Origin: Marsupella aquatica
Lineage: Eukaryota > Plantae > Marchantiophyta
Assembly (NCBI GenBank): GCA_973895155.1
Contig: OZ316891.1
Span: 27,317,561-27,381,560, forward strand
Direction: 5' to 3'
DNA: 64,000 nucleotides
Shown: positions 875 through 25,739 of the stretch, in pieces
Layout of the letters: each line of letters begins with the position of its first letter
Position numbering within the stretch: the stretch's first letter is position 1
Position numbers and translations under genes: made by a program
The notes under the pieces: generated by a model
The model's input: only the letters and a program-made list of their open reading frames with translations
The model's database searches: none
Told to the model about the DNA's origin: nothing

Positions 875-892
875 GAATCAGCCAAAAACGAG

Positions 893-3513: not shown

Positions 3514-3550
3514 GTTACTAGTTTGATCCAAAAATTGAGGAGACGACATT

Positions 3551-3690
3551 CTCACCTGTAAATGGAACGTGAGCCGAGGGAATACGAATATCTATAGAGA
3601 TTGGGGATTGAGCAAGACATAGAGGTACCACGAGTGAGCAGAAATGAGCGTAATTTTTTGAGGAGGGCACTCTAATTTATACTTTCTCCT
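3551..3690 (-). promoter_or_regulatory. Putative TATA promoter and non-coding first exon of copy A
   Basis: Minus-strand GTATAAATTAG at ~3672-3682; donor AG|GTGAG at ~3552-3557; acceptor TTCTTTTCTTCAAG directly before the ATG at 2942. Confidence 0.55.
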
Positions 3691-3970
3691 CCTGAACAAG
3701 GCTAACTCCTAAGATTAGTTACAGGAAATAGTCGCGGCAAGGTCGAAGCAACTAGTCACGGCAAATAGTCGCAGCAAAGAGTTGGAAATATGGCAAAATT
3801 TATTATAGGTGCAATCCGATATGGGATACCCTTGTACAAATTCAATTGGCAACGAGATAGTAAATGAGTTTGTTACGAAATGCAACGAAAGATAGTAAAT
3901 CAATTCATGAAAAATAGTTTTACAAGGAGCTCAGGAGGAGCAGACCTAAACATGATTGAAAGAATGGGAA

Positions 3971-4525: not shown

Positions 4526-4730
4526 TCCAAATAGTTTGACAAGAAGGAAGGAATACCTGGAGTGATAGAAAATGGAGAAGTTCTGTTTTTGAAGAACCTA
4601 CAAAACAAGGATCAAAATATTTAATTTACTTTATTTATTTGATCAAAAGAAAAACATCATGTCGAAATCTTTGTGAGCCAAGAATACTGAACAAAACTCC
4701 AAATATTTGTGAGCAAAGAATCAAGAAGAT

Positions 4731-5087
4731 TCAATGGGAAGAGTTAACCCAAGGATCTTTGTTCCAAATCCGACAACACAAGTATGCCAATCGATGATAC
4801 TTATTTTGATCATCACGACAATAATTACACAAAGAATCGACATAATGCAGACAACCACTCAAAACAATTCTTGACCAAATTGGAACTCCTTGCTCATTCT
4901 TTTTGCAAAACTCAATTCGGAGCGGATTGAGACTATCTTGAGGATCTACGCCTCCCATCCAAAGCGCTCCTAATCCAACAGGAAGCACTTTGAGTTCAAT
5001 TAATCTCTTATACAATCGACAAGCACGTTTATCTCGGTTTTGAATCTGGACCGTCATTGAACTCACGGTTGAAAATATAAGTCTCAA
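4731..5087 (-). CDS. Small Cys-containing hypothetical protein (element cargo)
   Basis: 118-aa ORF downstream of a TATA/exon/intron module; no family recognised. Confidence 0.35.
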   Translation of the reverse strand: MRLIFSTVSSMTVQIQNRDKRACRLYKRLIELKVLPVGLGALWMGGVDPQDSLNPLRIEFCKKNEQGVPIWSRIVLSGCLHYVDSLCNYCRDDQNKYHRLAYLCCRIWNKDPWVNSSH

Positions 5088-5230
5088 AGAAAGCTAAAGC
5101 TTTAATAGTTCTTTACTCCAAAATGGCGGGCTCGAAGGAAGCAAGAGCTTTTGTCAAAATTGACCAGAACCTAGCCTGCAAAACCATCGCCGATACTTAA
5201 GATATCTTTTGCCATCGCCAAAAAGCTATT

Positions 5231-5937
5231 GCTGAATACCCAAAGGGCTACGCCGTATCCCACTTCGCATTCAAACTTCTCCTTTCGGACCTAACCTGAT
5301 TGATATTCAGAGGTTGAATACCATATGGCATATCAGGTATCCCACTTCGCATTCAACATTGAAATTTCCTTCATTTTTCAACCAAGAGCTTCTTATGCAG
5401 AGGTTGGATGCGAAGTGGGATACGCGGTATCCCACTTCGCATCCAACCTCTTTTTCTCATGTTTCGTCATGCCAAAACTGGATTTTTCAAGATTGAATCC
5501 CAAACCGGATACGCATCCTCGTGATTTCCAAAAAGATGTATTGCTCACCTATTTTTGTAGTCTGACTTGGGGGATATGAATATGCATATAGAGTGTGGAT
5601 TCGTCAGGAGCAAGCAAATGCGGGAGCAAGAAGAAATGAGCCAAAAAAATTGAGTCGGGGCTCTCCTATTTATAGTTTCCCTCGACCATGGTCAGTTTCT
5701 AACCATAGTTTCATCGTAGTCGATTAAAAGTGACCGTTGAAAGGAATCCTCAAGGAATATTCTTGACGGGTAAATCATACTCGCCCCTTTTACTGCGTTT
5801 GTTGGTTTTGTTTTTTTAAACTGCGATGGGATCCAAAATGGGATACGTCGTATCCCTGCTTTGGATTCAAGTCATTTTTTCCCATTTTAATAATCTAAAA
5901 TCTGGGTTATTAGAGGGAATACTAATTCCGTATCCAA
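5231..5937. repeat. Second cluster of type-A palindromes (about 6 copies, some degenerate)
   Basis: Copies near 5231, 5313, 5402 (GGTTGGATGCGAAGTGGGATACGCGGTATCCCACTTCGCATCCAACC, perfect arms), 5493, 5828, and degenerate ~5907. Confidence 0.85.
5544..5682 (-). promoter_or_regulatory. Second TATA and first-exon module, similar to 3551-3690
   Basis: Minus-strand CTATAAATAG at ~5666-5675; donor AG|GTGAG at ~5544-5549; shared blocks with 3551-3690 (gaata-c/t-gaatat, gagcaag, agaaatgagc). Confidence 0.55.
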
Positions 5938-5949
5938 CACTTTTTTGCC

Positions 5950-6390
5950 TTAGAATGTTTTTCCGCCGCGAGCATTTGAAACGAGAAGTGTGGTCACACT
6001 TCTCGTTTGATCCGTCACTATGTTTTCAGGGTTATCTCCGTGCAAAGAATCCAAATAGTCCAGTTTCCTAAGACCCATGTCGATGACGACCAGTGCCCAA
6101 TGGTTATGTCCCTCATGAATAGGGACCATGACCATCTCTACATCAGTTAAAATGTGCTCCAACTTTGAGGTCCAAGTTTGAACATCGTCATACTTATATC
6201 CACCTCAAGCAAGTTCCGAATAGAACCAAGTATCAAAAATATGAACCTGCGGGAGGTCGGTACCCGCGGATTCTGCTCTCGAAGCAATCAGACCAAAAGA
6301 AGCATTCAGAATTTCAGAAGTTATCCATCGCTCGGGACCTAAACATGCCATCTCGCGACGAGTTATGATGCATCCACTGATTGTCGACAA
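5950..6390 (-). CDS. Ulp1/SENP (peptidase C48) domain fragment, truncated before the catalytic Cys
   Basis: The His motif 'NHWALVVID' and the 'YLDSL' motif are present; the Q-x-N-xx-DCG motif is not found. Confidence 0.8.
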
Positions 6391-7392
6391 AACTAAATCC
6401 TAATCCATGTCAGGGTTGAGGCAAAAGTTTATCGCCACATCATCATTCAGGTTGAGAGAAGTGGGAAAGAGTGAATTGGCACCTGCCTCATTTGCAGGCT
6501 CCACTGCAAGTTCCACGGCAACATTATCGACATGTCCGATGACGGGCTCGACCTTGCATGGACCCTGATTTTCTGCCCAAGTGTGGGGAGGGGATGGATT
6601 GACGATGTTAACGGCCTCTTGAACTCCAGTGACAACCTAAAGGTAATCGGAAGGATCCTCAGACACAACCGGTGCAATATCATTTACAATTGAGTCCACC
6701 TCGCCAAATGACCCCACACGAGGCTCGCGTAGAGATAGAGGTATCCCACCGTCATTGTGTTCTTCCTCCACAAGAGGTCCTTTGGAACTCCCTAAGTGGT
6801 GGATCGGTCTTTGCGCCTCACCAAATTCCCATGGACGGCAAATTTGTTCCCCAACATTAATCATTCCAACACAAGGATCAGAAAATCTGTTATCGTCTTG
6901 ATGGGAAACTGTTCTAGTGACATGATAGTGCCTCCCTTCCTTTGCGCCACTTGCATTCGAGTTTTGCGTTGAGCTGCCCTCCCCTCCTGGAAGTTTCCAT
7001 AAGGATTTCACAAATTGTGCGACACCCTCCAACAACTTGAGATTCTCTGCATAAGCCATGAGGTCCATCACATCCCCCCTTTCCGAACAAAAAGAGAAAC
7101 ATTCCCTTTCCAGAAGAAGGGCATTCTTTCCTTGGAATGGGAACATTTTTATAATTTTTGGTTCCCCCGCGAAAAGCCCCACGGGGAGGGCAAACAGACA
7201 GACCAGAAGGCCAGACCAAGCGACATAAAACAAAGCCGAACACACAGCGCACAGGCACACATCACCAGCGCATATCCCACAGCCCCCCGACCACCAAACA
7301 GTGGAAAAGGGAAAATCAATCACCAACACAAGCCCAAGCCCAACATAAGAGGGCATTCAACAGTCAGATCATCCAGGAAGCCACGGTCCCCC

Positions 7393-10300
7393 TCAAGCAA
7401 AAGAATTGACAGCAATGCTGCCACTGCCTAGCCAAACCCTACGCAGGTCATCCATCCATGCCTTTGCCCGAATCAGGCGGGTGCACTTCCTGCCCGGGGG
7501 GCAGCGCCGACTAACAGCAAAAGCGTTCTCCGCTGCCTCATTCAGAACAAGTCCCAAGTCAAACACCCGTCTCCCCCCCACCTGAAACATGTGAGTGTTC
7601 CTTCCCGTCCAGAGTCGCCACAGAATATGGTGCAAGACGAAGATCCGGGCCACTTGCACAGGCTCCTTCCCGCAGGCCGCCTCTAAAAGAGCCATCAGAC
7701 CTCGTCCCATTGGGAAGCCCAGAATCTGCAACGAATCCTGACAGAGTAGCCAGCAACGGACCGCATGTGTACAGTGGAAGAACACGTGGGGGATCGTCTC
7801 CAGCCATCCTTTGCAAAGCTTGCAATCTCCATTACTCACCTCCATTCTGAGCGCACGTGCCCCAGTGAAAAGGCCCCCTACAATAATCCTCCACACAAAG
7901 GTCTTGCCTCTAATCGGAAGATCAGACCCCCAAAGCTTAGCCCAACACATATTCCAACGCATCTCAGGCCAGGACAGTGACCAGATCCGATTGAGGCGGT
8001 CATGGGATGCAGTCTTAGGCCTTAAGAAATCATACACTCTACAATTCTTGATTCTGAAGTCCTTCAGCGGCTCCGGTCTGTCTGTCCATCTCCACTGCTT
8101 GGCATACAAGTAGTATTCAGATCGGCAATTGTCTGCCCGCCAAAGGCACTCCAAGAACGAACGAGCCATCGTTCGATGCTCATCAGAAAAGCCACGCATA
8201 TTGTGCCATCGTAGCGGTAGGTCCTTCCAACATCCATCCTCCGTCGACCATCCATCACCAATAGACCTCAATCCCAGCCTGCCACAAATCGCAGCAATCT
8301 CTATGAGGGCTTTATTCGGAAGGGAATTGAAGCCCACCATACACCTGAGGGTATCCATGATGCTCCACCGGGAAGGTGGCCCCGTCCGCCCAGGATCGAA
8401 GAATAAGTGGGCTCTCACTAGCTCCCAGCTTCTCCAGAGACCTGTCGTGTAGGGGAGCCCACTAAATGAACGAGGCGTGCACAGTAGCAGCCGGTCCTGG
8501 AAGGAGTATCCATTTTGCCTAATAATTTTGTAGTTCGTCCACCCCATCAATTTCAGGTTGGCTGCCAACATCCTAGACCATTCCGTCTCAGGCGCGTTAA
8601 GTGCCTTAGTGAACCATTGAGAGAGTAATGCATCAGAGTGACTGCGGAAGTCCCGGAATCCCAGCCCCCCTTCCACACGTGGCAAAGCCATCCGATCCCA
8701 GGCCACCAGGGGGACCTTCCGTCCTCCAGTGGCATTATATCCCCATAAAAATTCCCTGCTCAGAGCAATCATCTTCTTCGCCAGGCCTACAGATGCCTTG
8801 CAATACATTACATGGTAGATCGGGATAGCAAGTAGTACCTGTTTGACCAGTAGTGAACGGCCAGTAAAAGAAAGAAGTTTGTTGGACCAAACAGAAAGTC
8901 TGGCACAAATCTTATCCAAACAGAATTTGTGCGGTTGTTCCGTGCTCAAACTCTCCCCAAAAGGTGCCCCCAGGTATTTCTGTATCTCGCCTCTTCGGCT
9001 GATAAGGCAGCCTGTGTTGTTCAGCCACTCTGGGATCCTTTCCAATGCCAATGGGATCACAACAGATTTCTTCAGATTCAGTCGCGCCCCACTAGCCATC
9101 TCATAGCATTCTAGAGCAGTGGTTGCTTCCTCAAAGGCACGCTCTGTGGCCGGGATAAACATCCCAACATCATCCGCAAACAGTCTATAGCAGATAGTGA
9201 ATCCAGGGGTGATCTGCAGTCCACAAAGTCGGCCCTCCGCCATCTCAATATCGAGAAAGTCCATAAGAGGTTGCGTGGAGATGACAAACAACAATGGTGA
9301 CAGTGGACAGCCCTGTCTTACCCCTCGTTTAAGCTCAAATGTGTTTGATAGTAATCCGTTCACCAAGGCCCTGGAAGATGCCTGTGCTAGCAGGGCCCTG
9401 ACCAGCATAGTGAAGCGTCCGCTGATGCCCAGTAGGTGCATGCATTCCCATAAGTAGTCATGTGAAACACGGTCAAAGGCCTTCTCGAAATCCAGTTTTA
9501 GGAACAATGCCTCTCTCCTCTTGTTGTGCACCCAGTCACATGTAAGCCAGGCTAAGGAAATATTTTCAAGAATGTGTCTTCCAGGTATAAATCCAGTCTG
9601 TTGCGGGCTAATAATCATGTGTAGAATCGGTTTGAGTCGTATAACGAGGATCTTGGCAATGAGCTTGTATATAGTATTTAACATTGTCAAAGGGCGCCAG
9701 TCCCTTAAAAACCGTTTATCAGGTTTCTTGGGTATGAACTTCACAATTCCTTCACAGATTCCAACGTCCAAAGCCCCCGTAAGCCAGAACTCCTGTATCA
9801 TATCCACCAGATCTTGCCCGAGAAACTCCTAGCATGCTCTGTAGACCTCAACTGTCATGCCATCCGGTCCCGGCGTTTTGTCACAAGGCAGGAGCCACAG
9901 CACCTCCTTCACCTCCTGGTATGACGGGAGTCTCTCCATCCTCAAATTCTCCGCTCCAGAGAGTGCAAACCTCGTGTTGCCAAGCAATCTGTCTCTGGCC
10001 ACACGAACCTCTTCCAACTCCGCTTCCAATCGCGGATCAGGCGAGTATAATGTTTGGCAGAACCTTTCTACCTCCTTCAGGATTTCTCCAGGGTCAGCTA
10101 CTGTACTCCCGTCCTCCCTATTCAGGGAAGGCATGGACTCACGAGATCGCTTAGCCCTCACTGTAGCAAAGAAAAACATTGTTGACTCGTCTCCTTCACT
10201 TAACCACTTAATTCTGGCTAGTCGTCGTCCTCTGTGTGCTTCCTCCAACTCTGAAGCATGTAGAGTATCTTCCGCGTCCATGAACTCTGCAATGTCTCCC

Positions 10301-11313
10301 TCTGAATGGTGTTCTATAATGGCCATCTTAAGAACTCGCAACTGAGCTCGCTGAGTTGCCATCTCCATCTCAGTTGTCCTTGGTTGGGCTTGAATTTCCT
10401 TCAATGTTTGACGCATTTTCCAGCTGCCCTTAGCAAAGCGCAGCCGCGGGTCCACAAAATCTCCTCATCCCACCCTCCAAGCAGCCTCCAGCCGCAGAAT
10501 GTCCTCCCTTCTCCGCAGAAACGCCGGGTTGGCCATGAAGAGACGCACTTTGCCTCTCTCCACCGTCTCTGTCAGTCCAGAGAGCTGCACATTCAACATA
10601 ACAGGATCATGATCCGAAAGGGCTGAGCCCCCGTCATGCAGGAGTTCCACCTCACAAAGCCATTCTCCCCTTTCACTAACATAAATCCTGTCGAGTCGAG
10701 ACTGTGACATCTCTCCATTCCGATTCCTTCTCCACGTGAAGCGCGGGCCAGCAGCTCCTCCCCTAATGTCCCACGCGTCTGTCAAATTAAATCTCATCTT
10801 CAAGAATCTCCAAAACTCAGCCTCTCTACCGCGGATCAGCGGCGATGTACCAGTCGAGTCCGTTCTGCGTTCTGTCATATTGAAGTCACCACACAGCACC
10901 CAGTCATTGTGTGGTAGCATCACCTTTAGATCATTCCATAGCAGAGCTCTTAGTCTAGCTGAATTGGGAGCATATATACACGCAACTCCGAAGGTCACCG
11001 CTCCCTTCTCGATCATAGCCCATACCGCCCTTCCCATATCCAGTGTTCCCGAGCCCACCACCCTTAGCTCAGGGTGTACCAGTAGTGCCGTTCCTCCCTT
11101 TCCCTCCTCCGGCTCAGAAGAAAAGTGCTGATATGATGGGAGAATAGCCCGCAGAGCCATATCAAGTCTAAATTGATCAGCTTTCACTTCTTGAAGGGCC
11201 AGAATCCCCAGCGGTACCTTCAGCGATCTTACCCAATTCTTAACAATATGCTTACGGTTAGGCTCACAAAGTCCACAGACGTTCCAGGATGCCACCCTGA
11301 GCCTTCCGTCCAT
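7393..11313 (-). pseudogene. LINE ORF2 (APE endonuclease, reverse transcriptase, zf-RVT) with two in-frame stops
   Basis: SWNVCGL, LQEVK, GDFN, SRLDRIY, SDHDPV; KLDFEKAFD, RQGCPLSPLLF, FADD; CKLC...HVFFHC. Stops at 10465-10467 and 9829-9831 in the same frame. Confidence 0.95.
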
Positions 11314-11367
11314 CCTCCTACTATGCCAAAATTATATCCTGGCACAGCCACCCCCCATCCTTGCGTC

Positions 11368-13533
11368 TCATAGTCTATTCCGTCCCCCGGGAGACATCCC
11401 CGTCACATCTCGACCCATAGGTCCACTCAAATATCCATTAATAGAGCCAGCAGGAGAGACACGCATGGGGGATGCTAAATGCGCCACTCCACCGCCAAAA
11501 GGAGCATTCCCCTGGACCCTCGCATCACAATCGCTCCCTCTAGGAATGGTGAGCAGCAGTCGCTTGTGCATTGTAATCCCGTCCGCACTTCCTGCATTAG
11601 ACATGGCACCACGTGAGAATCTAATTGATCTTTGCTTCTTAGCCTCACCTTTGGCCTTCTCAGTCCTTTCAGAGGGCGGTGTGCGAAGTTCTTGCTTGCG
11701 GGCTCTAGCTTTGAATTTGCTATGTGAAATATAAGCTTCATATTTAGACATCTCCGCATCAGATTCTTTGTGAAAGGAGAAGGTCTCATCATTTCCATCA
11801 CGCGAATTGGGAGTAGTAAGGGCTTCAATTCCTTGTTCCACTGAATTTCTCTGAGTAGTCCGTCGCCCAATTGACGGGACAACGACAGCCAGTAGTGGAA
11901 TCCTGGCAGCCTCTGTGTCTTGTGAGTCCTCCATGCAGCCAGCCCGCCCAGGCGTCAGGAGACAATTAGCACTTCTCTCCCTGGTTCCCGAAGAGAAAGC
12001 CGCCACCCGCAAATCTGGGTTCTCCCGCAGCAGCGGCCCCGAGTCCCGCCCTGCCAACTCCCCAGGAACCGGACTAACAATTAGCAACTCCACCTGAGCA
12101 ATATCCTCCTCCACTGAAAAGGGTACCTCCAGCACAGGAGGCACCATGGCTCCCCAAAAAATAGCACGTGCTTCAGCATTTTCTTTAGCCCTCAACACCT
12201 CCTCCTGATCAGCCTCAGAGTGTCTCTCGTCATCTTTCTCGTTCGGCGGGTCCGCTCCCGTCCGTAGAGCACCGGCAGTCTCCAAGATTACTTTACATTC
12301 ACGGGCCAGGTGACCTCTTTGGTTGCATCGAAAGCAGTGATAGGGGATATTTTTAAACGTCACCGGTTGCCAGATAATAATGTCATCACGAATTCGAATC
12401 TTCACACTGGCAGGGACTTCCCTGTCCGTGTCCCAAAGGATGCAAGCCCGATCGTGGGGATACAAACTGAATTTGTTTCCCTGAATGTAGTACAGCAGAG
12501 TCCCTAGAGAGCATGCAATCTTTCTTCTGCAGCCCTCTAGAGCAAGATCCCTAAACGGTATCTCAATCCACACTGGGAGCTTCATGAAGTTCTCACATTT
12601 AACATCAAAGGATGGATCCCATGGGAACGTGTATATAAATCGTCTCTCCATAAACCATGGTGCGTAGTTGAGTGCCAGATCCCTGTGATTAGGATCCTCA
12701 AACACTATCATGTAAAAGTTCTTCCCTACGAATTTAACCTGAAGTACCGGCCATCCCTCCTGGTTTGTCATCACTTCGTCTACCCATGCTCTAAAATCAT
12801 TGAGGAGCGGCGTTCTTCCCGTGAAGTAGCATATGAGAGCGCAATTATATAGTTGTCTCACATTACGAGCTGCTTCCGGTAGGTTCCATTCCACTTCTGC
12901 AAAGAGTCTCTTGTCAAGATCACCTTTGGACCTGATCGCAATCTCGCGCAGGATCTTGATACACTCTTCAGATTCATCATCCTCCACGGGCGCGTCCTGC
13001 ATCTCCACATTTTCTTGTGGCACCTCACTCCCCACCATTGCATCCTGGTTAACCTCATTCGCCCCTCTTCCAATTGTTCCACGCCCCCAATGCAGAGCTT
13101 CGCCTTCCTTCTCCCCTGCTCCATCCCCCTCCTGCAGGTTCTGAGGCAATTCCATTCCACTCACCGACTGCACCTTAGGTCCAGGTCCATTCATCGGATG
13201 CTCATTCCCATTCAAGTAATACAACTGAGATCTGGCCGCAGTTGTCTCCCCCAAATTCGGGTCGTTCCTCCCAGAGCGCGCATCTTGCGCAGAGAATCCA
13301 ATAGCAGGTCCACTGACCATAACACCCCGCGCAGGTGATCGCCCCACAGCTTCACCGGGTATCCCCCCCACCTCAAGCCTTGCAGCAGGCTCCCCTTGTG
13401 TCCTCCGATCTACTCGTCCACCAGCTAAGCGTCCCCCCCTCGCGCTCCTGCGGCTCGAGGGTCCATAATAGTCTATCCCCTGTTCCTCCATGATACAAGT
13501 GGCCTTCCTTGACTCTACAGCCTTTGCATCCAA
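11368..13533 (-). CDS. LINE ORF1 (DUF4283-like plus CCHC zinc knuckle)
   Basis: 'ALNYAPWF...LPVWIEI' and 'CFRCNQRGHLAREC'; open 721 aa. Confidence 0.9.
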   Translation of the reverse strand: MDAKAVESRKATCIMEEQGIDYYGPSSRRSARGGRLAGGRVDRRTQGEPAARLEVGGIPGEAVGRSPARGVMVSGPAIGFSAQDARSGRNDPNLGETTAARSQLYYLNGNEHPMNGPGPKVQSVSGMELPQNLQEGDGAGEKEGEALHWGRGTIGRGANEVNQDAMVGSEVPQENVEMQDAPVEDDESEECIKILREIAIRSKGDLDKRLFAEVEWNLPEAARNVRQLYNCALICYFTGRTPLLNDFRAWVDEVMTNQEGWPVLQVKFVGKNFYMIVFEDPNHRDLALNYAPWFMERRFIYTFPWDPSFDVKCENFMKLPVWIEIPFRDLALEGCRRKIACSLGTLLYYIQGNKFSLYPHDRACILWDTDREVPASVKIRIRDDIIIWQPVTFKNIPYHCFRCNQRGHLARECKVILETAGALRTGADPPNEKDDERHSEADQEEVLRAKENAEARAIFWGAMVPPVLEVPFSVEEDIAQVELLIVSPVPGELAGRDSGPLLRENPDLRVAAFSSGTRERSANCLLTPGRAGCMEDSQDTEAARIPLLAVVVPSIGRRTTQRNSVEQGIEALTTPNSRDGNDETFSFHKESDAEMSKYEAYISHSKFKARARKQELRTPPSERTEKAKGEAKKQRSIRFSRGAMSNAGSADGITMHKRLLLTIPRGSDCDARVQGNAPFGGGVAHLASPMRVSPAGSINGYLSGPMGRDVTGMSPGGRNRL

Positions 13534-14577
13534 TTAGGAAATAGTCAAGGTCTTCTTGTACTCACCAGAAGATTCGACGATGGCTCGAAGTCCCGTTGCC
13601 ACTCCACACCTCCTCGTCTCCAAGGCGCACCAAGGTCAGTCCTTCTTCTCACCGCTGTGTATGCCCGCCCATCCTTCTATTCGCAGGTTACGACGTTGAA
13701 ACAGCTCTCAGCTCGTCCCTATTCTCTCTCCTCTCGCTGCCAAACCTTCATACAGAATCGTCTCACCGCTCCATCCCAGGTTATGAGAAACGGAGAGTGG
13801 CATCAAAAAGTCTCCACGCCGTCAATGAATAAGCCACGATTGTCGAGGACGTCCCACTGTCCCGTGCTCCTTCGATCCTCTTCAGCTAAAAGGCCTTCCC
13901 TCACACCTCCGTAAGCGATTACCTCCCATCAAGTCCCCGCAGCTCCTCCCCTCTGGAAGAGACCATTCTTGGTCACATCAACCAGCCAGCACAGCCACAT
14001 ACGGAAAATTGATCCTCCCAATCCCATCTACCATCAGTCCGCTTACGCTCCGGTCTCCTCAAAGCCCATCCTGGCCCTTTCACTCATCACTTTTTCGCCA
14101 CTCTCGGTTATAGCCGAGCACAGAATCGGATCCACCCAACACTCACCGATTTATCCACCAATGTGTAACAGTTAAGACTCTCCTTCGCCATTGCTTGTAT
14201 CTGAGGAAACATTCTCCATCGAGCAAACTGCCCCCCGTACCCACCATGCCCGTGTCTGTGTACACACGGTGCGTCTCCCTTCTCCTACACCCTAAACCGA
14301 CCTAAAACCTTCTAAAATCTCCCGAGCCGTCCAGAGCATGGAGATGTCGAGAGTGAGCAAGAGTGGGTTCATTCGCATGCGGTGTCTCCTGCGTATCAAA
14401 ACCTTCCCCCTCGGGAAGCAACGCCCACACCCGATCCAGGTGTGGATGATTCCAAGCTCTTGAGAGAGAGCACAAGTCAGCGCCCGTAAGCAACCAGTTC
14501 TCAAGGTCACCAGCTCCTCGGTGGATCTCGAAGAAGGGCATTCTTTAAAACTTGCCCACCAATAAAGAAGTCCAACA

Positions 14578-14864
14578 CTCGGGGGGTTGACTATCAAAAA
14601 TCTTAGGAACCACGTGCGATCCAAAATAGGTATTTTTCATAGAAATTAGCTAAATTTTTAAAAAGTGTAGGAAGCAAAAGAAGGTATTATAGACCAATAT
14701 TTATAGAATATTCTCTAATATATACCTTTTATAAAGTAAAATAGGTCATTAATATTGAAAATATAGAATGTTTTTGGAATATTCCCATTATAAAATAGGT
14801 GTGTTTATATTAGGCTAGGATTGCACGTGGTACCCCAAAATATACACTAAGTTAACCCTCCGAG
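14578..14864. mobile_element. MITE copy 1 (287 bp, AT-rich interior)
   Basis: TIR CTCGGGGGGTTGACTA / TAAGTTAACCCTCCGAG; inner IR GGAACCACGTGCGATCC / GGATTGCACGTGGTACC; perfect 8-bp TSD GTCCAACA (14570-14577, 14865-14872). Confidence 0.92.
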
Positions 14865-16546
14865 GTCCAACACAATTTCCTCCTTCTCGGAAAATCGAAG
14901 AATGATTGCCTTGATAATTTTGTTGGGCTTAATGTTTGATGTAAATGTTCTGCCACCGGGGGTCCGGAAAGGAATGAGTCTATACAAGCGATCTCCAAGA
15001 GCGGATTTTTGCTTTGCTGCAACCTCTTCCTTGGAAAGGCCAGCATAATCTTCTTTGGCTGGTCTTGCTAGTTCAAGCTGATCAGCCAAGAAATGACCTT
15101 GAAACCCTCTGAAATGTTTTTCCCAATCTGGTTCTTGTTCCTGGGAGACTCCAAGAAAAACAATGGACTCAATAATACCCGACATGAAATGCGATGAGTG
15201 GACTTCTTTCGCACTCTTCCAATAGCTTCCATACTCCAAATGAGCATTATAACTAGAAGGTAGATCAGTGAAAGCTTCAATAATTCTGGCCAACAAGAGA
15301 CCTGGGTGCACGAAAAACACGATAGTCACCAAGTCGTTGGCGAGGACATTCACGACAGTCTTCAAGAAATTCAGCAGCTCCGATTGTGTCCAAGTATTTT
15401 GAATGAGTGTGTCATATCGACAATAGCAAGTGACGCATTAATCCTCTCCCTACAACTCGTCAAATCAAAAGGAGGCTCCGCGGAAGCAAGAAGATTCCCA
15501 GAGTAAAATATTCAATATGGATCCATTCTCTTGCGGACAGTTCCCCCAAATTTCTTTTGGTAAATATTCCGTAACCTATTCTTCAAAGGTTCTGGCATAT
15601 CGGATTTTGCAGAGACCTTGACTAAACTCTTGAAATAAGCATTGTCAACCATTGAGCAACATCGATCCAATTCTTCATTTGTGAAATTAAACTCGCGGAC
15701 CACATCCGACCAAACGGCCCCAACATTGAAAACACTTTCATAGGTCTCGTAGTAGAACCGCAAGATTGCACCTTTCAGCTTTTTAGTATACTTGGCTTTC
15801 ATGGCAAGATCGGACATTGAAGGTATATCTGTCCTTGCATGTCTTCTCTTCATCAAGAGAACCTCTCCCGATTGAACTTTATTCAAGATAGAGGTAATGT
15901 CAGATTCTTGCGCCCCCTCAAATACCCTGGATGTCGTCCCAGTAAGTTGTTTTGCTTCCCTCTTCTTCCCAGTCATCTCTCCATTGTTGTCAGGTAAACT
16001 ACCGGACAACCAACTATTGCAGACCGACATCCACAACTTATAGAGGCTCTCCAATGCGAAAAGGATCCAGTTCTATCCGCTGATGCTACTCACTTTCAGT
16101 GTGACTTTGGCCAACCCTTCGCAATCCTGAAACCCAACAACAAATGGTAAGAACAACACAGTAAACCAAACCTTTGGAGAAGGTATCTTAGAGCCAAGCC
16201 TTGGATTCTACACGAGGCTCGTGTGGACCACAAAAGAAATTATGGTGTCAACAAGAACGGACCTGGAATTCTTGGGATTTTTGCCTAGATGGCACTGGCC
16301 ACACTGGTCGATTCATTTCTGGATATTGCATTCTCGCATGCCTGACCTGGTCGATGAATGGTGATGAGAAACGATGTGCTTCAGCTTGCAAGTTGTTTGC
16401 ATGTGAAATCTCAACCAACACCTTAACAGGTGTCGACCCCTTGAGAATTCTTGCACGACGGAATTTGAGGAGGTTGGCAGTTTCAACCAAAGATGGCTGT
16501 GTCCGAGAACTCTGAATGATTTTCCTCGCGGCCATAGTTGAGTGTT

Positions 16547-16861
16547 CCTGGGAAAATATTTTTTATAATAAAAGGTGAGACCGCGAAAACCCCACGGCCG
16601 GGGGGAAGCAAACAGCCCCATAGATACATCAGAACAACTCCCTCAGGGAGGCCAGCGGCAAAAGCAAAGGCCAGAATCACAATAAAAAAAGAAAAAAGGG
16701 GGGACTAAACCTAGTGGCCCAAAATGTGAGTGACCCATACATCATGTCAACTTCTAGAGCCCTAGAGCCGGTAAAGCGAGGTATCCCATTCGACCTCTTC
16801 CAATAGCTATCACTCCTAGACCAGCAACGCAGCCACAGAGGTGACTCTGCCAGTACTCCTA
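16547..16861 (-). mobile_element. 5'-truncated LINE (3' end only, 315 bp)
   Basis: 16-bp TSD GCCATAGTTGAGTGTT (16531-16546, 16862-16877); carries the same 3' motif CCGCGAAAA(G)CCCCACGG as the LINE end at ~7167. Confidence 0.85.
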
Positions 16862-18986
16862 GCCATAGTTGAGTGTTGACCACTTATTGCAAAATATTGA
16901 TACTCGGATAATTGTTTAGAATCAAAATCTCTGACGGAAAGATCGATAAGACTGTAAACACCATTAATCATCTTGTAAGGCACCAAATCTACAGGCAAAG
17001 GTTCCTGACCGGCATTTAAAATCATCAACTGAACAAGATGGTTGACATGGTCTTCGTTGAGTAACCTCTCATTCATTTTTGCCGGCGAAGGATAGATATT
17101 CATCAAAGGAATGAGGAAAACTTTTGACAGCCCAAAAGAATACCAGCATCGGTTTTGCTACAAAGTCTTTTCTGCCCTCTCAAGTCTGGCTTGATCAACG
17201 ATTACTTTAGAACTCGAGTCAGCATTCATCTCTCCCATGTCATCCATGACATCCATCTCAATCATCTCCACTTTCTTACGTTGTTTCTTCGGGATTGGGA
17301 CACCGGTTTCCGATGCCTCTTCCATTCCCCCAGTCTCTCTTTTGCGGCCCCTTCCACGCTTGGACTTCTCCGATCTTGTCACCCCATGGTCTGTGGATAC
17401 GTTTTGCACTTGAGTATTGACCTTTTGAGATTTTGAGGGCACCTTCTGTTTCATGACAGCTGAAGGTGTTGCAGCGGAAGGTGTTGCAGCGGAAGGTGTT
17501 GCAGCGGAAGCCTTACGAGACAAATCCTTCTTAACGACACCTTTTGATACGGGTTTTGCTATCTCTTCCACAACTGCCTGCTTCTTTTGAGCCTTCTTCT
17601 TGACAGCCTTCTTCTGTTCTGGCATTTCGCCGCTTTAATCTTCTTCTGTGGTTGTTTGGACTTTGCGATCTGTGGCCCTTTCACCTCATTAGAGCTAGTG
17701 TGGATTTTTGCCTGAGGGACATTAGCTTTCCCAACCTTCTCTGGAAGAGCGATCTTTGAAGACAATCTCTTCTTCTTGGAAGGAGGAGTGTCTTCTTCCA
17801 TTCACTTTCTTTTCTTTTTCTTCTGCACCTCCATCTTAGTCTCAGAGTCCTTTTCCTCTTCAGCCTCTGAGCCTCCCACTTCCGCGAGTTCTTCATCCAC
17901 GGCTTGGATCTTATCTTCAAAGATCTCCTCTATTCCAACCAACTCAGGACTCAAAGAGTCACTGGGAACAATGCTTGGTTCATCTGATGTACCCTGTGAA
18001 CTTGATGATCTTGAATCTAAACTCGACGACGATCCAGGTTCCTATACAACTTTGCTTGCTTTGAGATTTGGGCCACCACCATGACATCCGTGCCTTTTCT
18101 GATTCAAATTGAAGGCCTTCACTACAGGATGGATTGCAACCCAACGTTTAATCCTTTCCTTGTCAACTAGATCTGGGAAAGCAATTTTTGGAACGATCTC
18201 GATCTCCTGCCGGAGTTCATCTTCCGGTAAAGATAGAGACATGACGTAAACAACATGCCTGGTTGCAAAAAGGTGAGATTGATAATCTTTGAAGAACAAA
18301 AAACTAACCCTTCCCAGCCCTGAAACAATATCCTCAGCAGTGAGAACATTATCTGGATCCATGAAACAATGAGTGGATGGATCAAAAAATCCTAAGGACG
18401 TTATGTTCATTGTCGCATCATTTGGCTCAAGACAATGTGCACAACAATATTGTTCAACGGGAAGAGAGAACTCTCTATATCCACAATTAACGCGGTCCTC
18501 CACCGTCACTGTCAGAAAGACCTTTCGCTTCTGGTGCTCTGGTGCTTTTGAAATCCTACAATCGGCAAGCACACCCAAGTACTTCCAAAACCTCTTGGGC
18601 TTGGCAATAACGATCCCCCGCAACCAACACCTCCAAGGATCACCCTCCATACGCATTTCAAAAGACCATGAATTGACGATTGGATTTTGGTGGCTAATAG
18701 TGCTTCGCTTAGCGGTTGCGGTAGGCACGGGTGGCTAAAACAAACATACGGGAATCCTAGGAAAGAACCAATATGGAAGATTTAGAATAGAGTCCAAGAT
18801 GTCAAAACAAATGCCGAGATTTTATTATTCACAAAAATGTACAATTCGTCCAGAAAACAACTCATTCGACCAAAATGGACTTTGCCCGCTCGACTACCAT
18901 CTTCTAAAGTTGGGGCACATATTGATCTGGGTGCCTCGATCTCCAACTAAACAACTCATCTAGTACTAAGTCTTGACAGATGAGTT

Positions 18987-19840
18987 CTAGGGAAATGTCT
19001 CCTAGGCTGCTTCCTTCTTCAGCCTCTTGATAGTCTGGAGGTGGCCTTCCTCCTGGGCCGTCATGATAATCAGCTTCTTTGTGAGCATCTATATCTGACT
19101 CTCACGGAGCTCATCAAGCTTGGTGGCCTGCTTCATCACTAGGCACAACTCTTGACATGTCTGAAGATGATTCCGCTGAGCTCGAAAATATCTTCCAGGA
19201 TAATCCTTTCTAATCGAACTAATCTCTTCATCTTTCTCCTTCATAGTTTCTCGCAGGGTCTCAAGTTCCTTGAGGACATCCTCAGTCATTTGGGACTCCT
19301 TCTCATATTTATCTTTGATCGATTTCAAATGTTTCAAGGCATTGTCGATTTGGCCTTCAAGGTAACAAATGAGCCTCAGGTGAGTAACATGCTCTACACA
19401 AGAGTCACGTGAAAGCAAATGGAAATGATATTTACTCCAACGGATTTTCGTACGGAAGCACTGATGGGATGAGGATCGTCCGGGATCTACACGAGAGTCG
19501 CGTGAAGATAGAGATAAAAAACGTCTAAAACTGATTCGGAGAAAAAAGATTGAGGGTTACCTTCAAGCATGATCTGCCCATTCATAGCATAGTACTGGAG
19601 ATCATCTACACGAGTCTTGTGTAGAAAACTTAGTACTGGGTATCGCATAACACAAATAAATCTAATAGGATAATGTCTACACGAGACTCATGTGGAAGGA
19701 ACCGCTGAAATTTGAAATAAAAACAAACAACGAAAAGAAAAACTAAAGATCTACACGACTGTCGTGTGTAAATACCTTCAACTCTGGTGAAAGCTGCGAC
19801 CGACATCTCCCGGACCTCCGATTCTGATAGATTTGCCATG
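18987..19840 (-). pseudogene. Multi-exon coiled-coil hypothetical gene
   Basis: TATA-like GGTATATATTTC at ~19978-19989; first exon 'MANLSESEVREMSVAAFTRVE'; heptad-like 'LKSIKDKYEKESQMTEDVLKELETLRETMKEKDEEI'. Exon structure is uncertain. Confidence 0.4.
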
Positions 19841-20413
19841 AAACCTCTTTGCACATGTGAAACAATTTGCAAAATATGGACGGAATTGAGCACAACTCAG
19901 AGGGAGAGACGAATGAGCGAAAGGGCGGAGAATGAGAGGGCAAAGATGAAGGAATGAGGGAATGAGCGAATCTCCTTGAAATATATACCTGACACAAGGA
20001 ATGGGCGAGCGTAAAAATGGGCCAGCGTGAAGCGTGAAGACATCATTAAGAGCGCCGCCAAAAATATCGACGAATCTTACCAGACGACAATCGTGTAGAG
20101 CTATCAGCCTATCACATTCGAGTAGATGTGCTTATTCTTTTGTCATTATCTGTTGTCATTGTCTGATATGATTAATTGCGCCACCAAAATATCGGAAAAT
20201 TGGACCACACAATGATCTAGCAGAGCGGCCACCCTATCATTTTTGTCCATTATATTCGGGATTTCTATCTGGGAATGGTATTTATTGATTAGTCGTCTTG
20301 ATTCTCTAGTCATTCTCTCGCCAGACATGAATGGTTCCGAGGACAGGTTTTGGCATGGGTTTGAGTCCAAGGACTGCTTTTGGGCGCCCAATCGGTACGT
20401 CCCTTCTGGGATT

Positions 20414-20475
20414 CCATTCCTGTGACTGTCTCATTCCTGTGACTGTCTCATTCCTGTGACTGTCTCATTCCTGTT
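20414..20475. repeat. 17-bp tandem repeat (CATTCCTGTGACTGTCT), about 3.5 copies
   Basis: Read directly from the sequence. Confidence 0.9.
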
Positions 20476-21181
20476 ACTCTTGGAGAATGTTTTTTTAGGA
20501 CAATTATCTGTACCTCATTTCTTTCAAAAGTTCTACTAAATAGGGGTACTGTAATAGCATATTTAGGATTTCAAAGAGGAATTAGACCTCATTTCTTCCA
20601 TAACTGCCCTAATTTTAGAGTTAGACTTCATTTCTTCTTTAGTCAATTGAGGACGATTGAGGGTCCTAACATGGGTTATGTCTTGGTCTTGAGGAATTGG
20701 ACTTCAATTGTAACACAATTTATCAGTTGGGTGGTTCCTTAATGTGATATTACATGGATTGGGGATTTGTACCCTGTTGGAATTTGTACACTGATGGACC
20801 TTTTACCCTATTGGAATTTGTACCTTGTTGGACTTTCCTTCTCTCTTAGAGTGAAGCATCAAATAATAGTGGGTCCTTTCCTTACTTCTTGTGGGATTTT
20901 TGTCATAAATGCATATGATTGTGATAATCCGGTTACTTTTGGGAGATGTTTAGACCTAAGCTGATGCTCTACACGAGGCTCGCCTAGCCATCGAACCTCC
21001 TTGTGTTTCCTTCCACTACCTGTATGTATTAATAATTCTACACAAGCCTCGTGTTGAGGGTTATCGATGTGCATGTTTTATTATGGTTAACTAGGTCTTT
21101 TCCTGCCGGTGAATAATTCCCGTCTTGTGTCCACACGAGAGTCGTGTTGAAGTTACTGTTAACCTCGAATCGGTCAAGAAT

Positions 21182-24100
21182 ATGTTTTTCCCTGGGGATC
21201 GAGTTAATCTCTTATTGAACGATGAACCGGTTGCAGGTGGGACGGTTTTCAGCATTACTCGCTCGGACTCTTGTCACAACATTCTGATTGGCGAGCATAG
21301 AATCAATGAACATTTTTGTTGAGGATGCATTCTTCCACCTTGCTGAGTTACCTTATCCAAACGCAGGGGCGGACCTGGTTGGTGAAAGCTTAAATTCAGT
21401 AATTTAGTGGGATCGGTCCAGAGTCAGGTTTGCGGAAAGCCAGCGCCCGGTTTATCCAGGTGACAACCAAGAGGAGATTCCTCTAGAACGAGAAGCAGGT
21501 TTTGGGGAGCAAGATGCCACGGGAGACACTGTCCATAGTCAGGACAATGTTCTCTTGAGCGAGGACCTGAGCGATCAAAGTAGGTGGTTCAAGAAGTTTG
21601 CTTTGCTTTACGGAGATGATGATGAGACACTACTGGCTCGAGGGTGTATCACAAATCCACACCCTCAAGCATCAATTAACAATGAGAGAGTTGGAGATGA
21701 TCATGTCGGGATCAATATTCTCACACTGGCCGCCGACAACATCTCAAAGATGACGTTCCCTTATTTTGTTGAGGGAACGCCTTGCACAATCAAATGGCCT
21801 TTGCGGAGAACTCGGATCGAGCCTGGAATGCAATTGTTAAGCGATCTATTGGATCAAAATGAATTCCTGAATCCCGAGCGATCAATTGTATCATATGTTA
21901 AACCAAAGCGAGGCTATAATAATCAACATTGCAACCCGCAGGCTCCTGAGGAGAAGGAAAGGAAGAATATTCATAGAAGGCGTAACAGAAAGAAGACTCG
22001 GGAATCTATTGATGTTGTCTTCCAGGTTGAGTGTTGCACAAAGAATTGTTGTAGGAAACAACAGTGGGAAGTGGTCAATCAGATTAGAGATGAATTTTAT
22101 GGTCTCTCTCACGCCGATCAACAGACGTACATTTTGAACCATCTACACGGGAGGGATACGGAAACTATAGAGGCCGGGATGATTATTTTCATGGGACACA
22201 TGTCTATAAAGAAGGGTTTTGGACCATCCATGGTTTCTCCAGAGGAACCTTCTATTCAATCTATAGTCACTATCAAAATGGGGCAAAAGTTGGCGTTCAT
22301 GGCAACCAAGGATCAATGAAAACCAAAGACTACATCACATTATTTGTGGAGTGTATACGAAGTGTATTCCAAAAATGTGCAGAGCCTATGCCTCATCTCC
22401 ATAAAATTGGAGAGTCTAGAAAGCAGGAGGTCGTGTATAGGGTTCCCATAAGCTACGAGAGGAAAGATGTTTATGAAGAGGCTTGTGAGCTTAACAAGAA
22501 TCTTGGAGCTTCTTCTCCTGTCATCACTACTTTCTACAAGATATTGGAGAAAAAGTTTCCCAATTTCCAATTTCCTGATCGAAGCAATTTTGCAAAATGC
22601 GATCTCTGTACTACAATCAAAGAGACTCTTCGAGGCAAGAAGAGACAAGATGTTGTTCTTGAAATCAAGGCCAAAAGAGAACGTCACATGCTGGAACAAC
22701 AGTCCCGGAGAAGCATGTATTATGCAGCCAAACTAGCAGTAGATCAAGAGCCAGAGAAGTATCTCTCGGTGATTCATGACAAAATGGATCAAGCCAAAAC
22801 AGGGATACCAAAAATGACTTTAACTCTTAAAAGTCAAGCGGGTAAATCAATTTCGTTATCGATGACGTTGACTGGAATGCTCACGCATGGATGGGATCCC
22901 AGAATCTATGCCCATTTTGCACTTGGTGGATTGTGGGCGAGTGATCCTGATTTCACAGTCTCATCTCTTTCAAAGTTGTTCAGGGATCTTGAGTCATTCT
23001 CTAGGGATAAGACTGGAGACTTATCGCCGAGGAGCACAGACATGTCTGATCCTATTTTTGTTGCGCTTTTAGATCGTCGGGCTTTTGAGATTGGCTATCT
23101 AGAAAGGAAGAATGTGGATTTTGACCATTTTAAAGGACTTGAAAACAAGGCTCGCGCGAGCCTCGCATGGAACCCTCATCCTCCAATTCTTTTTGACCAC
23201 TTCCATGCCATTTTCACCTCCAACTTGACAATTCAGGGAAGGACAATAAGAATCAGATCGTGATCGCATATTGTAGTGAGCTTGTTCTTTGAGGAGTGTT
23301 TGAGTCTGTTACACTCTCCTTCCTGATGGTTGGTCATACTCATGAGGACGTTGATGCATTCTTTTCACGAGTAGGAATTTGGATTTATAATCATGAGTTA
23401 ACAACTTTCTTTAGTTTGATGGTTGAAGTTTGGGAGTGTGAGAAGAAGCATCCAGTCCCAAGATTCATCCGTGAGGTTGCTGGATACAAAGCTTATGTTT
23501 CTTCTTATGTGAAGAAGATCCAAGGTCAGTTGGCCCCTGTGCAGTTCTTGTTTTCAATGAAAGAAAATACACCTATTTATCAATATCGGGAGAAAATTGA
23601 TTCGCCGTGGCTACCTGCAAAAGGTCACTCCATTTGGAAAACTACTGGAAAGGACTTTGTGTTTCCCTCCGAAAATCCTCTTTCAAAACAAATGGAGTCG
23701 ACTCATAAGCGAGCGAGTGGCATTCTCAAATACCTCGTTCATTACATTTCATGGCTAAAAGCCGCCTGGAAAGATGTCACATCAGAGGGATATCATTTTC
23801 GATCCCCGGAAATTGAGTATTGGGAAAATGTCATCAGGGTCTTCAAAGGTTCCCTATGCTCTGCGCCTAATCTAGAGAGGGACTATCTGCTACTCGATGG
23901 GTTTTGGCCAAGAACTAACCATGGAACCGGATATCGAGCTGAGGTTGGGATTTCTGAGAATAACATTGGCTCTATCAACAATGTCGTGGGCAGCCTTGAG
24001 CGTGAACTTCAGGAAGATCAATATGAGAGACAGACAATATTTGTTGGCCACCGCTCGGAGCAAGAAAGGTCAAGATTCTCCCCACTTGAGGATATTAAAA

Positions 24101-24471
24101 AGGATACGTTTGTTATTCTTCGTCCAACAGATAAATTTGAACAAATAGTTCCCCTTCGATTCTGGCTAGGAAGAGCCATGGATCGTGTTGTGTGGGTTCC
24201 AGATGATGCTCATGCTGGGGAGTTTGAGGCGGAATGGTGGAGACCTGTCCATCAAAAATTGTTTGTCCCAGACTCTGAACGATATCGGGATTGTTTCAAT
24301 TCTAAACAGTCCTGGGAAGTTGATCCAAATTACCAAAGTCCTACAATCCGACACGACTGGCTCCTCGCAACGTCTACAATCAATGGCTGGAATTCAAAGG
24401 CAAAGGGTAAAGTGAAAGTTCCAGGTCATGTTCTTGAAAGCGTGAATGCATACATTTCCGAGAACTTCTGA
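21182..24471 (+). pseudogene. Sola-like DD(E/D) DNA transposase, degraded
   Basis: CCxxxCC + 'IRDEFYGLS...QQTYIL'; 'KCDLC'; 'SVIHDKMDQAK'; 'HLQLDNSGKDNKN' (alternate frame ~23215-23253); 'SFLMVGHTHEDVDAFFS'. Frameshifts and TGA stops. The superfamily assignment is from recalled motifs. Confidence 0.7.
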
Positions 24472-24818
24472 ACGGAGTGTTTGTTTCTGCACGAGGCTCA
24501 CGTAGGGCCTCCTCATTTTGCCTTACCAAGGAAGGTTTAGGTTGACCATTTGGATCTGCACGAGGGTCGCGTAGAGTGGCCTCGCTTTGGTCTCTAGGCT
24601 AGGGTCTACTAAAAGCGACATGGCCGTAGACCCGGGATTCGCACGCTTTGGCCATTTCTTGGTCTTGTCCAAAAGGGAACTCCTCACTCTCTTTTCCCAT
24701 TCTGTGGTTTCTCATTCACTTTCAATCTGCTGTTGATGTTAGTTTTTGTCGTCATTTGATTTGTGTTAGTTTTCGTATTTCTTAATCTGATTTTGAGAGG
24801 ATCTCTTGAGTTCTTTCG

Positions 24819-25352
24819 ATGAATCCACCAGTGACGTCCAAGGACCTCGCCGTGACCAACAACTCAACAGAGGTTTCCCCGCCTCATAGCTCAAAGGAGG
24901 GGAACGCCCAAAGGAGGTCATCCAAGATTTACACGCCTGCGGATGGGTTTGACCGTAGTTGCAATTCTGACAAAGAAGGATCTTTTTTAAGAGAGTGTAC
25001 TCGATGTAAAAGGTTTTTCTTGTCAAAACTCGATGGAGATACCTGTGGCTTTCCCAATTGTAAGACACCTGGAGAATAAAAAATGGATGATTCAAAGATT
25101 AGCCGTGGAGGAAATTCCGTGCCGCCTATGGAGGGGCAGGAGGCATTGGGTACGAGGAAAGCCGGAAAGATGCCCAGGGAGACTGTGAACAAAAGACGCA
25201 TGAAGGAAAATGTCAATGTCTACTATGGGAAGGGAAAGAAGCAAAGGCGGGCTCCGATGGACCATCGAGCTTGGGCAAAGGAAGCTTTCCTTGACTGTCG
25301 TGAATCCACTCCGGACTCGGATGAGTGGATGTCATCTTCATGGAACGATTAA
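24819..25352 (+). CDS. Small hypothetical protein with CxxC...CxxxxC zinc-ribbon-like motif and basic tail (one in-frame stop)
   Basis: ORFs 24819-25079 and 25083-25352 are in the same frame; flanked by type-B palindromes. Confidence 0.35.
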
Positions 25353-25524
25353 GATTTGAAGCCATTTGGGAGAGTCTTAAGTTTTTGAAGCATTTTGAGG
25401 AAAACGCGAGTCTCGCGTAGATATTTGACTCCAGAAAATTTAGATTGTGTTCGCTCACTTTTGTTTCTGCTTTAAGCTGGTAAAGGAGATTTCCTTATCT
25501 GAATGCCCATGTCTCTATGGGCAT

Positions 25525-25665
25525 CTCATTATTTTCTTTAAATCAATGAGTGCACATCACTCTATACTATGATAAACCTCCGATTATTTTCTTTAAATTA
25601 GTGAGTGCAAATCACTCCATACCATGATAACCCTCAATACTTTCTTCGAATCAATGAGTGCACAC
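25525..25665. repeat. ~55-bp tandem repeat, about 2.5 copies
   Basis: ATTATTTTCTTTAAAT..TGAGTGCA.ATCACTC.ATAC.ATGATAA.CCTC repeated. Confidence 0.8.
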
Positions 25666-25739
25666 CAGAAATTACCACATTTTGATGTGTGATTATTGGC
25701 AGGGGTCACAACTACATTTTTGCATTTCAGGACCAGGTT

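Follow-up and report, generated by a model that had tools for sequence, protein, structure and literature searches.

The 64,000-nucleotide stretch of the liverwort Marsupella aquatica analysed here (contig OZ316891.1, positions 27,317,561 to 27,381,560; hereafter the window) carries a multi-copy transposon with a DUF7869 transposase and apparently two genes, A and B, that are predicted to code for ParB-like proteins fused to methyltransferase-type domains. Each gene is accompanied by its own family of dispersed palindromes, type A and type B, and across related loci the type of palindrome follows the lineage of the ParB-like gene, which suggests that protein and site have evolved together. Introns and gene starts are inferred throughout from reading frames and homology.

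Type-B palindromes, gene B and the transposase

On the minus strand, gene B extends from about 18734 to 5953 and diverges from the transposase. The two genes and their palindromes are arranged as follows.

5953..7137, minus strand: linker and Ulp1 (Peptidase_C48) exons that form the 3' part of gene B (E 1.5e-12, profile positions 65-133 of 217)
6713..6733: type-B palindrome within an open frame, in the 3' part of gene B, displaced as judged from a target-site duplication (TSD)
14850..15515, minus strand: degenerate methyltransferase-like region of gene B (weak matches to the family profile, E 3e-4 and 8e-4)
15515..17157, minus strand: ParB-like domain of gene B and the helical region after it, split by a short remnant of a long interspersed nuclear element (LINE) and an intron
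16207..16227: type-B palindrome in an apparent gene B intron
17161..18734, minus strand: probable 5' part of gene B, a 230-aa frame and low-complexity linker (assigned from frames, no Pfam match)
19092..19380, minus strand: small open frame with a coiled coil, either a gene of its own or a first exon
19393..19770: five type-B palindromes (19393, 19486, 19605, 19676, 19750) spaced 71-119 bp, in non-coding DNA at the 5' end of the minus-strand genes
20079..20099: type-B palindrome between the divergent gene starts
20968..21150: three type-B sites, at 20968, 21037 and 21130, by the 5' end of the transposase
21104..24471, plus strand: DUF7869 DDE-type transposase with frameshifts, 43-55% identical to the protein P0128 in three main segments
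24486..24575: two type-B palindromes directly after the transposase stop
25401..25421: degenerate type-B palindrome near the right end

Type-B sites were counted by mismatch-tolerant scans of the window and set against chance expectations. An earlier note on this DNA had written the motif as TCTACACGAG-N-CTCGTGTAGA; no perfect copy of this form exists in the window, the motif being degenerate, and its excess is nonetheless strong, with 8 matches at up to three mismatches against 0.00 expected from 100 shuffles, and 11, 13 and 16 matches at up to four, five and six mismatches against 0, 0.33 and 1.9. The corrected consensus TCTACACGAS-N-STCGTGTAGA finds, at up to five mismatches, 13 sites in 14861-27300 and one more at 6713, for a chance expectation of 0.15 per 27.3 kb, and none in 1-5900, in the LINE that interrupts gene B, or in 27301-64000. 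The estimate of about 14 copies was therefore right, with 13 inside the interval given for them and one outside, and the motif is far more frequent than background. In its degenerate form the 21-bp consensus reads TCYACRCGAS-N-STCGYGTRGA, the 13 copies starting at 16207 to 25401, and the half-site symmetrised over 28 halves is TCYACRCGAS. Its CGA core is retained in 25-28 of the 28 halves, and all six changes at the CG of the core are transitions, the pattern that would be expected of methyl-cytosine decay.

The placement described earlier, mostly non-coding, on both sides of the divergent promoter and downstream of the transposase, is borne out: 12 of the 14 sites lie outside coding DNA as marked by a generous mask over 70% of the region; sites flank the divergent gene starts on either side (19393-20079 and 20968-21130); and those at 24486, 24555 and 25401 lie 3' of the transposase stop. 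The remaining two are centred in coding DNA, one of them (21130) in coding DNA defined by homology. The flanks of the sites are unrelated (on average 15 of 50 bases alike) and the stem positions lack covariation, since 465 of 500 shuffles pair as well. Because of the non-coding placement, the unrelated flanks and the missing covariation, the sites look like protein-binding sites and not like hairpins. That they act as RNA hairpins aiding splicing or processing is hardly credible: many do lie in apparent introns and 83% of the stem cells can pair, but covariation does not exceed that of shuffles, with 1 of 126 cells compensatory, the centre is too short for a loop, no Rfam match was found in 1-28000, and the asymmetric site of a related locus (L002, below) occurs in both orientations.

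Within gene B, the segments 16864-17157 (probability 94%, E 1.2e-7) and 16251-16562 (E 0.0075) align to the family profile in hhalign, the former covering the ParB-like domain, and a stop at 16073 is missing from other contigs. In the methyltransferase, DMTH aligns where relatives have DxPY/H, and KP and LDL are retained; no intact catalytic motif was found in this region. The Ulp1 domain has its His and Asp exons and is truncated ahead of the catalytic Cys, a DCG-type Cys motif not being found in 5000-6100. Gene B is a distant paralogue of gene A with a degenerate methyltransferase and a truncated Ulp1. Several insertions interrupt the gene, and a probable terminus lies to its right.

7130..14529, minus strand: full-length L1-type LINE inside gene B (17-bp TSD, 7113-7129/14530-14546)
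14550..14858: short repeat element inserted at the other edge of the LINE (three copies in the window)
16547..16861, minus strand: 5'-truncated LINE remnant in the ParB-like exon (16-bp TSD, 16531-16546/16862-16877)
25528..25704, plus strand: subterminal tandem repeats of 53-55 bp and a probable terminus whose last bases are CAGGG, common to many more genomic copies

The site at 6713 belongs to gene B, because the LINE insertion with its 17-bp TSD displaced the 3' part of the gene. The short repeat is AT-rich, and its three copies lie at 14553-14858, 37742-38046 and 49318-49487. Further right, amid LINE and long terminal repeat remnants, 52553-55035 holds an ordinary gene of the host, which codes for a cation transporter of the TrkH/HKT type.

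The named relatives of the transposase are all from Riccia, which together with the plant-type L1 elements makes the window look like DNA of a non-seed land plant. Pfam gives DUF7869 and, on the frames scanned, no MULE or VANC-type family. In P0128 the spacing from D687 to E726/D727/D729 is short, and in the alignment 39-42 residues lie between the second Asp and the last acidic residue, in a part where the structure model is of low confidence; this spacing presumably fits Sola1, a label that we keep as a lead only. CMC transposases (CACTA/EnSpm, Plavaka) have a large insertion domain between the second Asp and the last acidic residue, so that the catalytic spacing speaks against a CACTA/CMC element reaching to about 27240; such an element was rejected for this misfit and because 25706-27240 may be a separate element. 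The structure model (predicted local distance difference test, pLDDT, 54, low confidence) had no fold match at E<=0.001. Weak Tudor/Agenet-like matches (E>=0.02) to the model, built on P0128 and corresponding to 21104-24471, possibly indicate chromatin readers.

Gene A, the probable composite element and the proposed co-evolution of sites

To the left of gene B lies the A module, with the following features.

323..3062, minus strand: gene A, with an N-terminal domain, a ParB-like domain with helical part and an N6_N4 methyltransferase (profiles and structure model)
3025..5870: ten type-A palindromes with the core GGGATAC-NNN-GTATCCC and an outer GAAT arm
4734..5093, minus strand: small Cys-rich gene upstream of gene A

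In this copy the motif-IV (catalytic-motif) part of the methyltransferase of gene A is deleted, and a contig loose end lies at 872. Gene A is a paralogue of gene B with ten sites of its own, besides which a degenerate type-A palindrome occurs at about 890-940. None of the ten is centred in homology-defined coding DNA, and all ten cluster near predicted gene starts (within about 0.7 kb) or between genes, as do 9 of the 14 type-B sites. The A-type proteins have a conserved 180-aa N-terminal domain (2461-3062 in the window; 643-1188, 393-953 and 1047-1586 in the related loci L001, L002 and L005) with no Pfam match and only weak, unrelated matches in an atlas search; Pfam did not confirm an Ulp1 for gene A in 3-254. 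Upstream of gene A, 3974-5093 holds two small minus-strand genes. The Cys-rich gene at 4734..5093 is a conserved cargo gene, because a counterpart (E 3e-8) lies upstream of the L005 ParB gene as well.

Four public runs, from two organisms and two studies, give contigs over 15257-27138 at an even multi-copy depth, with variants in the thousands, and two of these runs cover 1-7230 without a drop in contig depth, a measure that is not equal to copy number. Variant contigs tile across the A/B border at 5826 (10 and 23 contigs) and 5971 (5 and 13 contigs); no large loose-end cluster falls there among the 12 of 466 loose ends listed, and no single listed contig contains both the last A site and part of the Ulp1 exon. 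On the right, 42-82 contigs with unlike flanks end at 25695/25704; a left partner of the 25704 terminus was not found in the window. The simplest reading is that A and B form one composite multi-copy element of more than 17 kb without insertions, which starts left of the window. Since contig depth is continuous, variants span the border and no loose-end cluster marks it, a site type belongs to a ParB gene module within one composite element. The earlier note held that the motif ties gene B and the transposase into one element, and this part stands, both being covered by the motif and by contigs of the four runs at similar multi-copy depth; its division of A and B into separate elements does not, for they do not look like two. 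Its absence of type-B sites near copy A holds for 1-5900, whereas the site at 6713, which it missed, adjoins the A region yet belongs to gene B; type-A palindromes in the B region, which it had not seen, number 0.

Several smaller observations concern the borders. At 5979-6008 a 30-bp near-perfect palindrome lies within the end of the Ulp1 frame, where protease homology stops, and 4 bases at 5975 are missing from other copies; it is possibly an old junction of modules A and B. The terminal 90 bp (25611-25704) are common to a higher-copy family with differing inner sequence (49-82 contigs), probably a family of MITEs (transposable elements of the miniature inverted-repeat kind) with the same ends. 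Beyond, 25706-27240 is multi-copy over its 1.5 kb, has clusters rich in ACGT/GACG at either end with a small gene (26129-26761) between them, and may be a separate element. In two runs a contig joint links 21121 to 25706, suggesting either a terminus or the end of a deletion at 25706.

Related loci came from a metagenome scan, in which 5 of 59 candidate stretches were confirmed (L001-L005), and from a transposase scan, in which 5 of 90 were (L006-L010). Eight ParB modules could thus be compared, namely A and B of the window, L001-L005 and L010. A palindrome family is present in seven of them, with five types in total. The motif GAGCGAGAC-NN-GTCTCGCTC occurs 15 times in L001, 8 times in L003 and 3 times in L005, and L002 has 20 copies of CCGATCC-AA-ACATCGG, an asymmetric site that lies 12 times in one orientation and 8 times in the other. 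Tabulated by locus, the motifs form a diagonal: each of four stays around the ParB clade to which it belongs, cross-hits numbering 0 at the two stricter thresholds and strays appearing only at the loosest, in the last 36.7 kb of the window. Specifically, L001, L003 and L005, which are 79-87% identical, have one site in common; L002 (62-65% identity to them) and window A (46-54%) have different sites whose half-sites can be aligned with it from the outer GAAT to the centre; B and L010 (15-33% identity in the N-domain) have unrelated sites, the B half-site not being alignable with those of A, the L001 type or L002. In L001-L003 and L005, 1 of 45 sites is centred in homology-defined coding DNA.

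L010 (contig CBDBZY010000041.1) holds a DUF7869 transposase, a divergent ParB-like gene (E 1.6e-30) and a methyltransferase remnant (E 3.8e-8), and is an unrelated DUF7869 transposon that repeats the layout with a site of its own. This fifth site, GACTCAA-NN-TTGAGTC, has at up to two mismatches 11 copies outside and 36 inside a tandem array, for 0.13 expected outside; at the same tolerance it is absent from 1-27300 of the window and from the six other loci scanned, and the other four motifs are absent from L010. L010, like L006-L009, is eukaryote-looking transposon DNA filed in prokaryotic metagenome assemblies; it contains introns and comes from a bacterial assembly. An unbiased palindrome search returned families of 8-15 copies in A, L001, L002, L003 and L010, no family of more than 3 copies in any of the four transposase-only loci (L006-L009), and at most 4 copies in six background tiles.

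The prediction that motif type tracks the ParB lineage thus holds across the eight modules, the types never crossing between clades. That each subfamily has its own site needs rewording: site type does follow the ParB gene lineage, but the unit is the ParB gene module within a composite element, not a separate subfamily. On these comparisons the proposed co-evolution of protein and site holds up. Neutral relics (decayed MITEs, tandem duplications) or sites of a host transcription factor make a very improbable alternative: some type-A, L003 and L010 copies are indeed recent tandem duplicates, but type-B cores are kept while their flanks are unrelated, the other 50 kb of the window has 0 type-B sites, and the five motifs are mutually exclusive, two of them within one metagenome assembly.

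A transposase or TnpA-like product could instead bind the sites, for synapsis or self-activation. The transposase gene has six type-B sites on its flanks, module A could have a second transposase somewhere to the left of the window, and transposases can be sequence-specific activators, according to the sections covered of 10.64898/2026.08.24.746577. This is nevertheless improbable, because the one composite unit holds two site types that each centre on a ParB gene of their own, and the subterminal repeats at the terminus are different ones; moreover, 0 of 4 transposase-only loci have a palindrome family. On the L001, L002 and L005 contigs no transposase was detected and the arrays surround the ParB genes; L003 gives a weak hint only, a convergent frame tried as a transposase tail that was not significant, was marginal with a focused profile (4.5 bits against 4.3 for the best shuffle) and was not counted.

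ParB fold, methyltransferase and proposed function

At E<=0.001 the exon of gene A finds 127 relatives, named ones being from Chara, Riccia, Adiantum and Ginkgo and distant ones from abalone, and PF01555 is present in 6 of the 36 relatives scanned. Its AlphaFold model (pLDDT 88) finds Noc and ParB as best Foldseek matches (E 2e-5). Superposed on Myxococcus xanthus ParB it gives a VIA Z of 11.2 over 92 residues at a root-mean-square deviation (rmsd) of 2.0 and shows the ParB/Srx N-terminal fold; a Caulobacter crescentus ParB chain gives Z 9.4 (rmsd 5.1, 167 residues), and KorB is among the matches (Z 9.1). The helical part after the ParB domain aligned only at rmsd 4.5-5.6 in whole-model alignments (6t1f, 8qa9, 7nfu). 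Scans of prokaryote genomes with ParB, and of a viral collection with the motif, ParB and transposase, were empty, and no ParA was seen among the frames scanned. In the relatives L001-L003, P0021 and P0027 the methyltransferase has DVPY, DIPY, DFPY or DIPH followed by motif I, DLxxGxGS/T, and its nearest solved relatives are DpnA and CcrM; a DPPY-like motif ahead of motif I we take to indicate N6-adenine and not N4-cytosine as the target in intact relatives. One Chara braunii protein (P0006, GBG86584.1) has two ParB-methyltransferase units in tandem within one predicted protein, echoing the two modules of the window.

The sites observed lie mostly in non-coding DNA and match ParB lineages one to one, and the protein family has the ParB fold and is fused to an N6/N4-type methyltransferase (with Ulp1 in B). 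On these grounds we read the 21-bp palindromes as putative binding sites of the ParB-like protein that gene B of the same transposon encodes, and that protein would mark the element as self for its fused enzymes; we give this reading a probability of about 0.62. The part of it that makes the ParB-like protein the binder of the sites, whether for marking or for regulating its own element, is quite probable. The protein would bind the palindrome as a dimer, the helical domain after the ParB domain reading each half-site as in ParB-parS and Noc-NBS, and loading along the element would start from the sites that cluster in introns and a short way downstream of gene starts. Catalytically intact members (DxPY/H) would deposit N6-methyladenine in cis and so keep the element promoters out of host silencing; gene B, with its degenerate catalytic motif, would act mainly as a binder or scaffold. 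Protein and site would change in step, giving rise to orthogonal pairs, of which this composite element would carry two.

Alternatively, the same protein may bind as a KorB-like operator regulator of divergent promoters, methylation being incidental, a model that differs in output only. The sites near predicted gene starts or between genes (9 of 14 type-B, 10 of 10 type-A), the degenerate methyltransferase motifs of B and L010 and the KorB fold match speak for it; sites also lie past stop codons and in internal introns, however, and the methyltransferase is intact in most relatives, which makes regulation as the sole output unlikely.

Several points weigh against self-marking through these sites. 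ParB proteins have a nucleotide-patch motif, GxxRxxA, whose arginine is absent here (GGNHGARA in A, SGQHST in B, GGLHT in L010), so that CTP clamping may not apply to these proteins. The degenerate methyltransferase motifs of gene B and L010 mean that methylation cannot be the whole purpose, and, because all genes of an element share its history, site type would track ParB phylogeny also if another element protein were the binder. Four of the five metagenome loci L001-L005 come from one assembly, clade support for L001/L003/L005 is moderate (82/92), L004 (1.1 kb) has no site of any type, and L005 has only 3; in the unbiased search the tile 20300-25700 reaches only 4, as one background tile also does. 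At 1.9-4.8 kb the transposase-only loci are short, and binomial P-values for non-coding placement treat clustered sites as independent. A word-based search with the B methyltransferase exon found no B-type relative with surrounding DNA, and one with the A ParB exon for longer proteins had no match; the B protein/site pair rests on this window and contig depth.

A wider and more tentative proposal, which we consider somewhat doubtful, is that a self-recognition code in the style of bacterial ParB/parS is carried by giant DUF7869 transposons in plants and other eukaryotes, every paralogue recognising its own palindrome and delivering an adenine methyltransferase and a SUMO protease to its element, in orthogonal sets of which this element has two; if true, it would be a programmable, transposon-borne source of site-directed N6-methyladenine (6mA) in land plants. 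The locus and its relatives supply concrete candidate protein/site pairs: the site types number five, of which three form a series that can be aligned, the methyltransferases of L001-L003 are intact, and the family has members in Chara, Riccia, Adiantum and Ginkgo. Such pairs could reveal whether the ParB fold still reads palindromes in eukaryotes and serve as orthogonal epigenome-targeting tools, and ParB-methyltransferase transposons might explain the source of some plant 6mA or N4-methylcytosine.

Comparison with known systems

Bacterial ParB-parS, Noc-NBS and KorB-OB bind dispersed palindromes of similar size. Like the proteins discussed here, they have the N-terminal fold followed by a helical domain (7bnk, 6t1f, 7ol9, 8qa8); unlike them, the plant proteins, 11-20% identical, lack the nucleotide-patch arginine and are fused to a methyltransferase and a SUMO protease in a eukaryotic transposon, with no ParA among the frames scanned.

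VANDAL elements of Arabidopsis are Mutator-like elements, and we know of no ParB fold or methyltransferase in their VANC proteins. VANC is an element-encoded protein whose family-specific motifs, in intron, intergenic and terminal non-coding DNA, co-evolve with it, and its anti-silencing effect has been demonstrated experimentally, according to the sections covered of PMC5735166. Family-specific motifs in non-coding DNA are likewise found here; VANDAL motifs are 9-base, non-palindromic and in tandem repeats (same sections), whereas the type-B motif described here is a 21-bp palindrome of putative function. VANDAL/VANC is the only case in which self-recognition through an accessory protein has been proven; for the algal ParB cargo genes it is a proposal.

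Among these, Sola1-1_Ec32 of Ectocarpus is a 21.5-kb DNA transposon with a ParB-like and N4/N6 methyltransferase fusion on the strand opposite the transposase, as in the present element; it was proposed to bind and modify its own DNA, and its best transposase match is Physcomitrella Sola1 (PMC12477816). The sections covered of that paper mention neither binding sites or palindromes nor Ulp1, and describe one accessory gene in a brown alga, against two paralogues with different sites here. Sola1 is also listed for Physcomitrella in the consulted part of PMC9033089, and a defining motif was not found in those of PMC5751038 or 10.1101/2021.09.26.461848. In Bostrychia, Plavaka elements (PAG2/PAG3) have a ParB-like accessory gene, PAG3, beside inverted-repeat arrays and a PF01555 methylase on the element, and self-modification was proposed (10.1101/2025.02.11.637652, in part). 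Unlike here, their ParB is fused to a 2OG oxygenase, the methylase is separate and SET-fused, the transposase is of the EnSpm/Plavaka kind, and the arrays beside PAG3 are tandem and not dispersed; lineage specificity of the sites does not feature in the sections covered, and the supplements may bear on it. ParB-HTH methylase fusions have also been noted in chlorophytes (PMC4738411, in part).

The idea of ParB and methyltransferase cargo with inverted repeats has thus already been proposed for algal transposons. The literature searched, which mostly did not extend to subscription papers, held no report of a land-plant ParB-methyltransferase transposon with lineage-specific palindromes; as far as these searches show, the plant example, the Ulp1 fusion, the matched site series across ParB clades and the presence of two site/protein pairs in one element are new.

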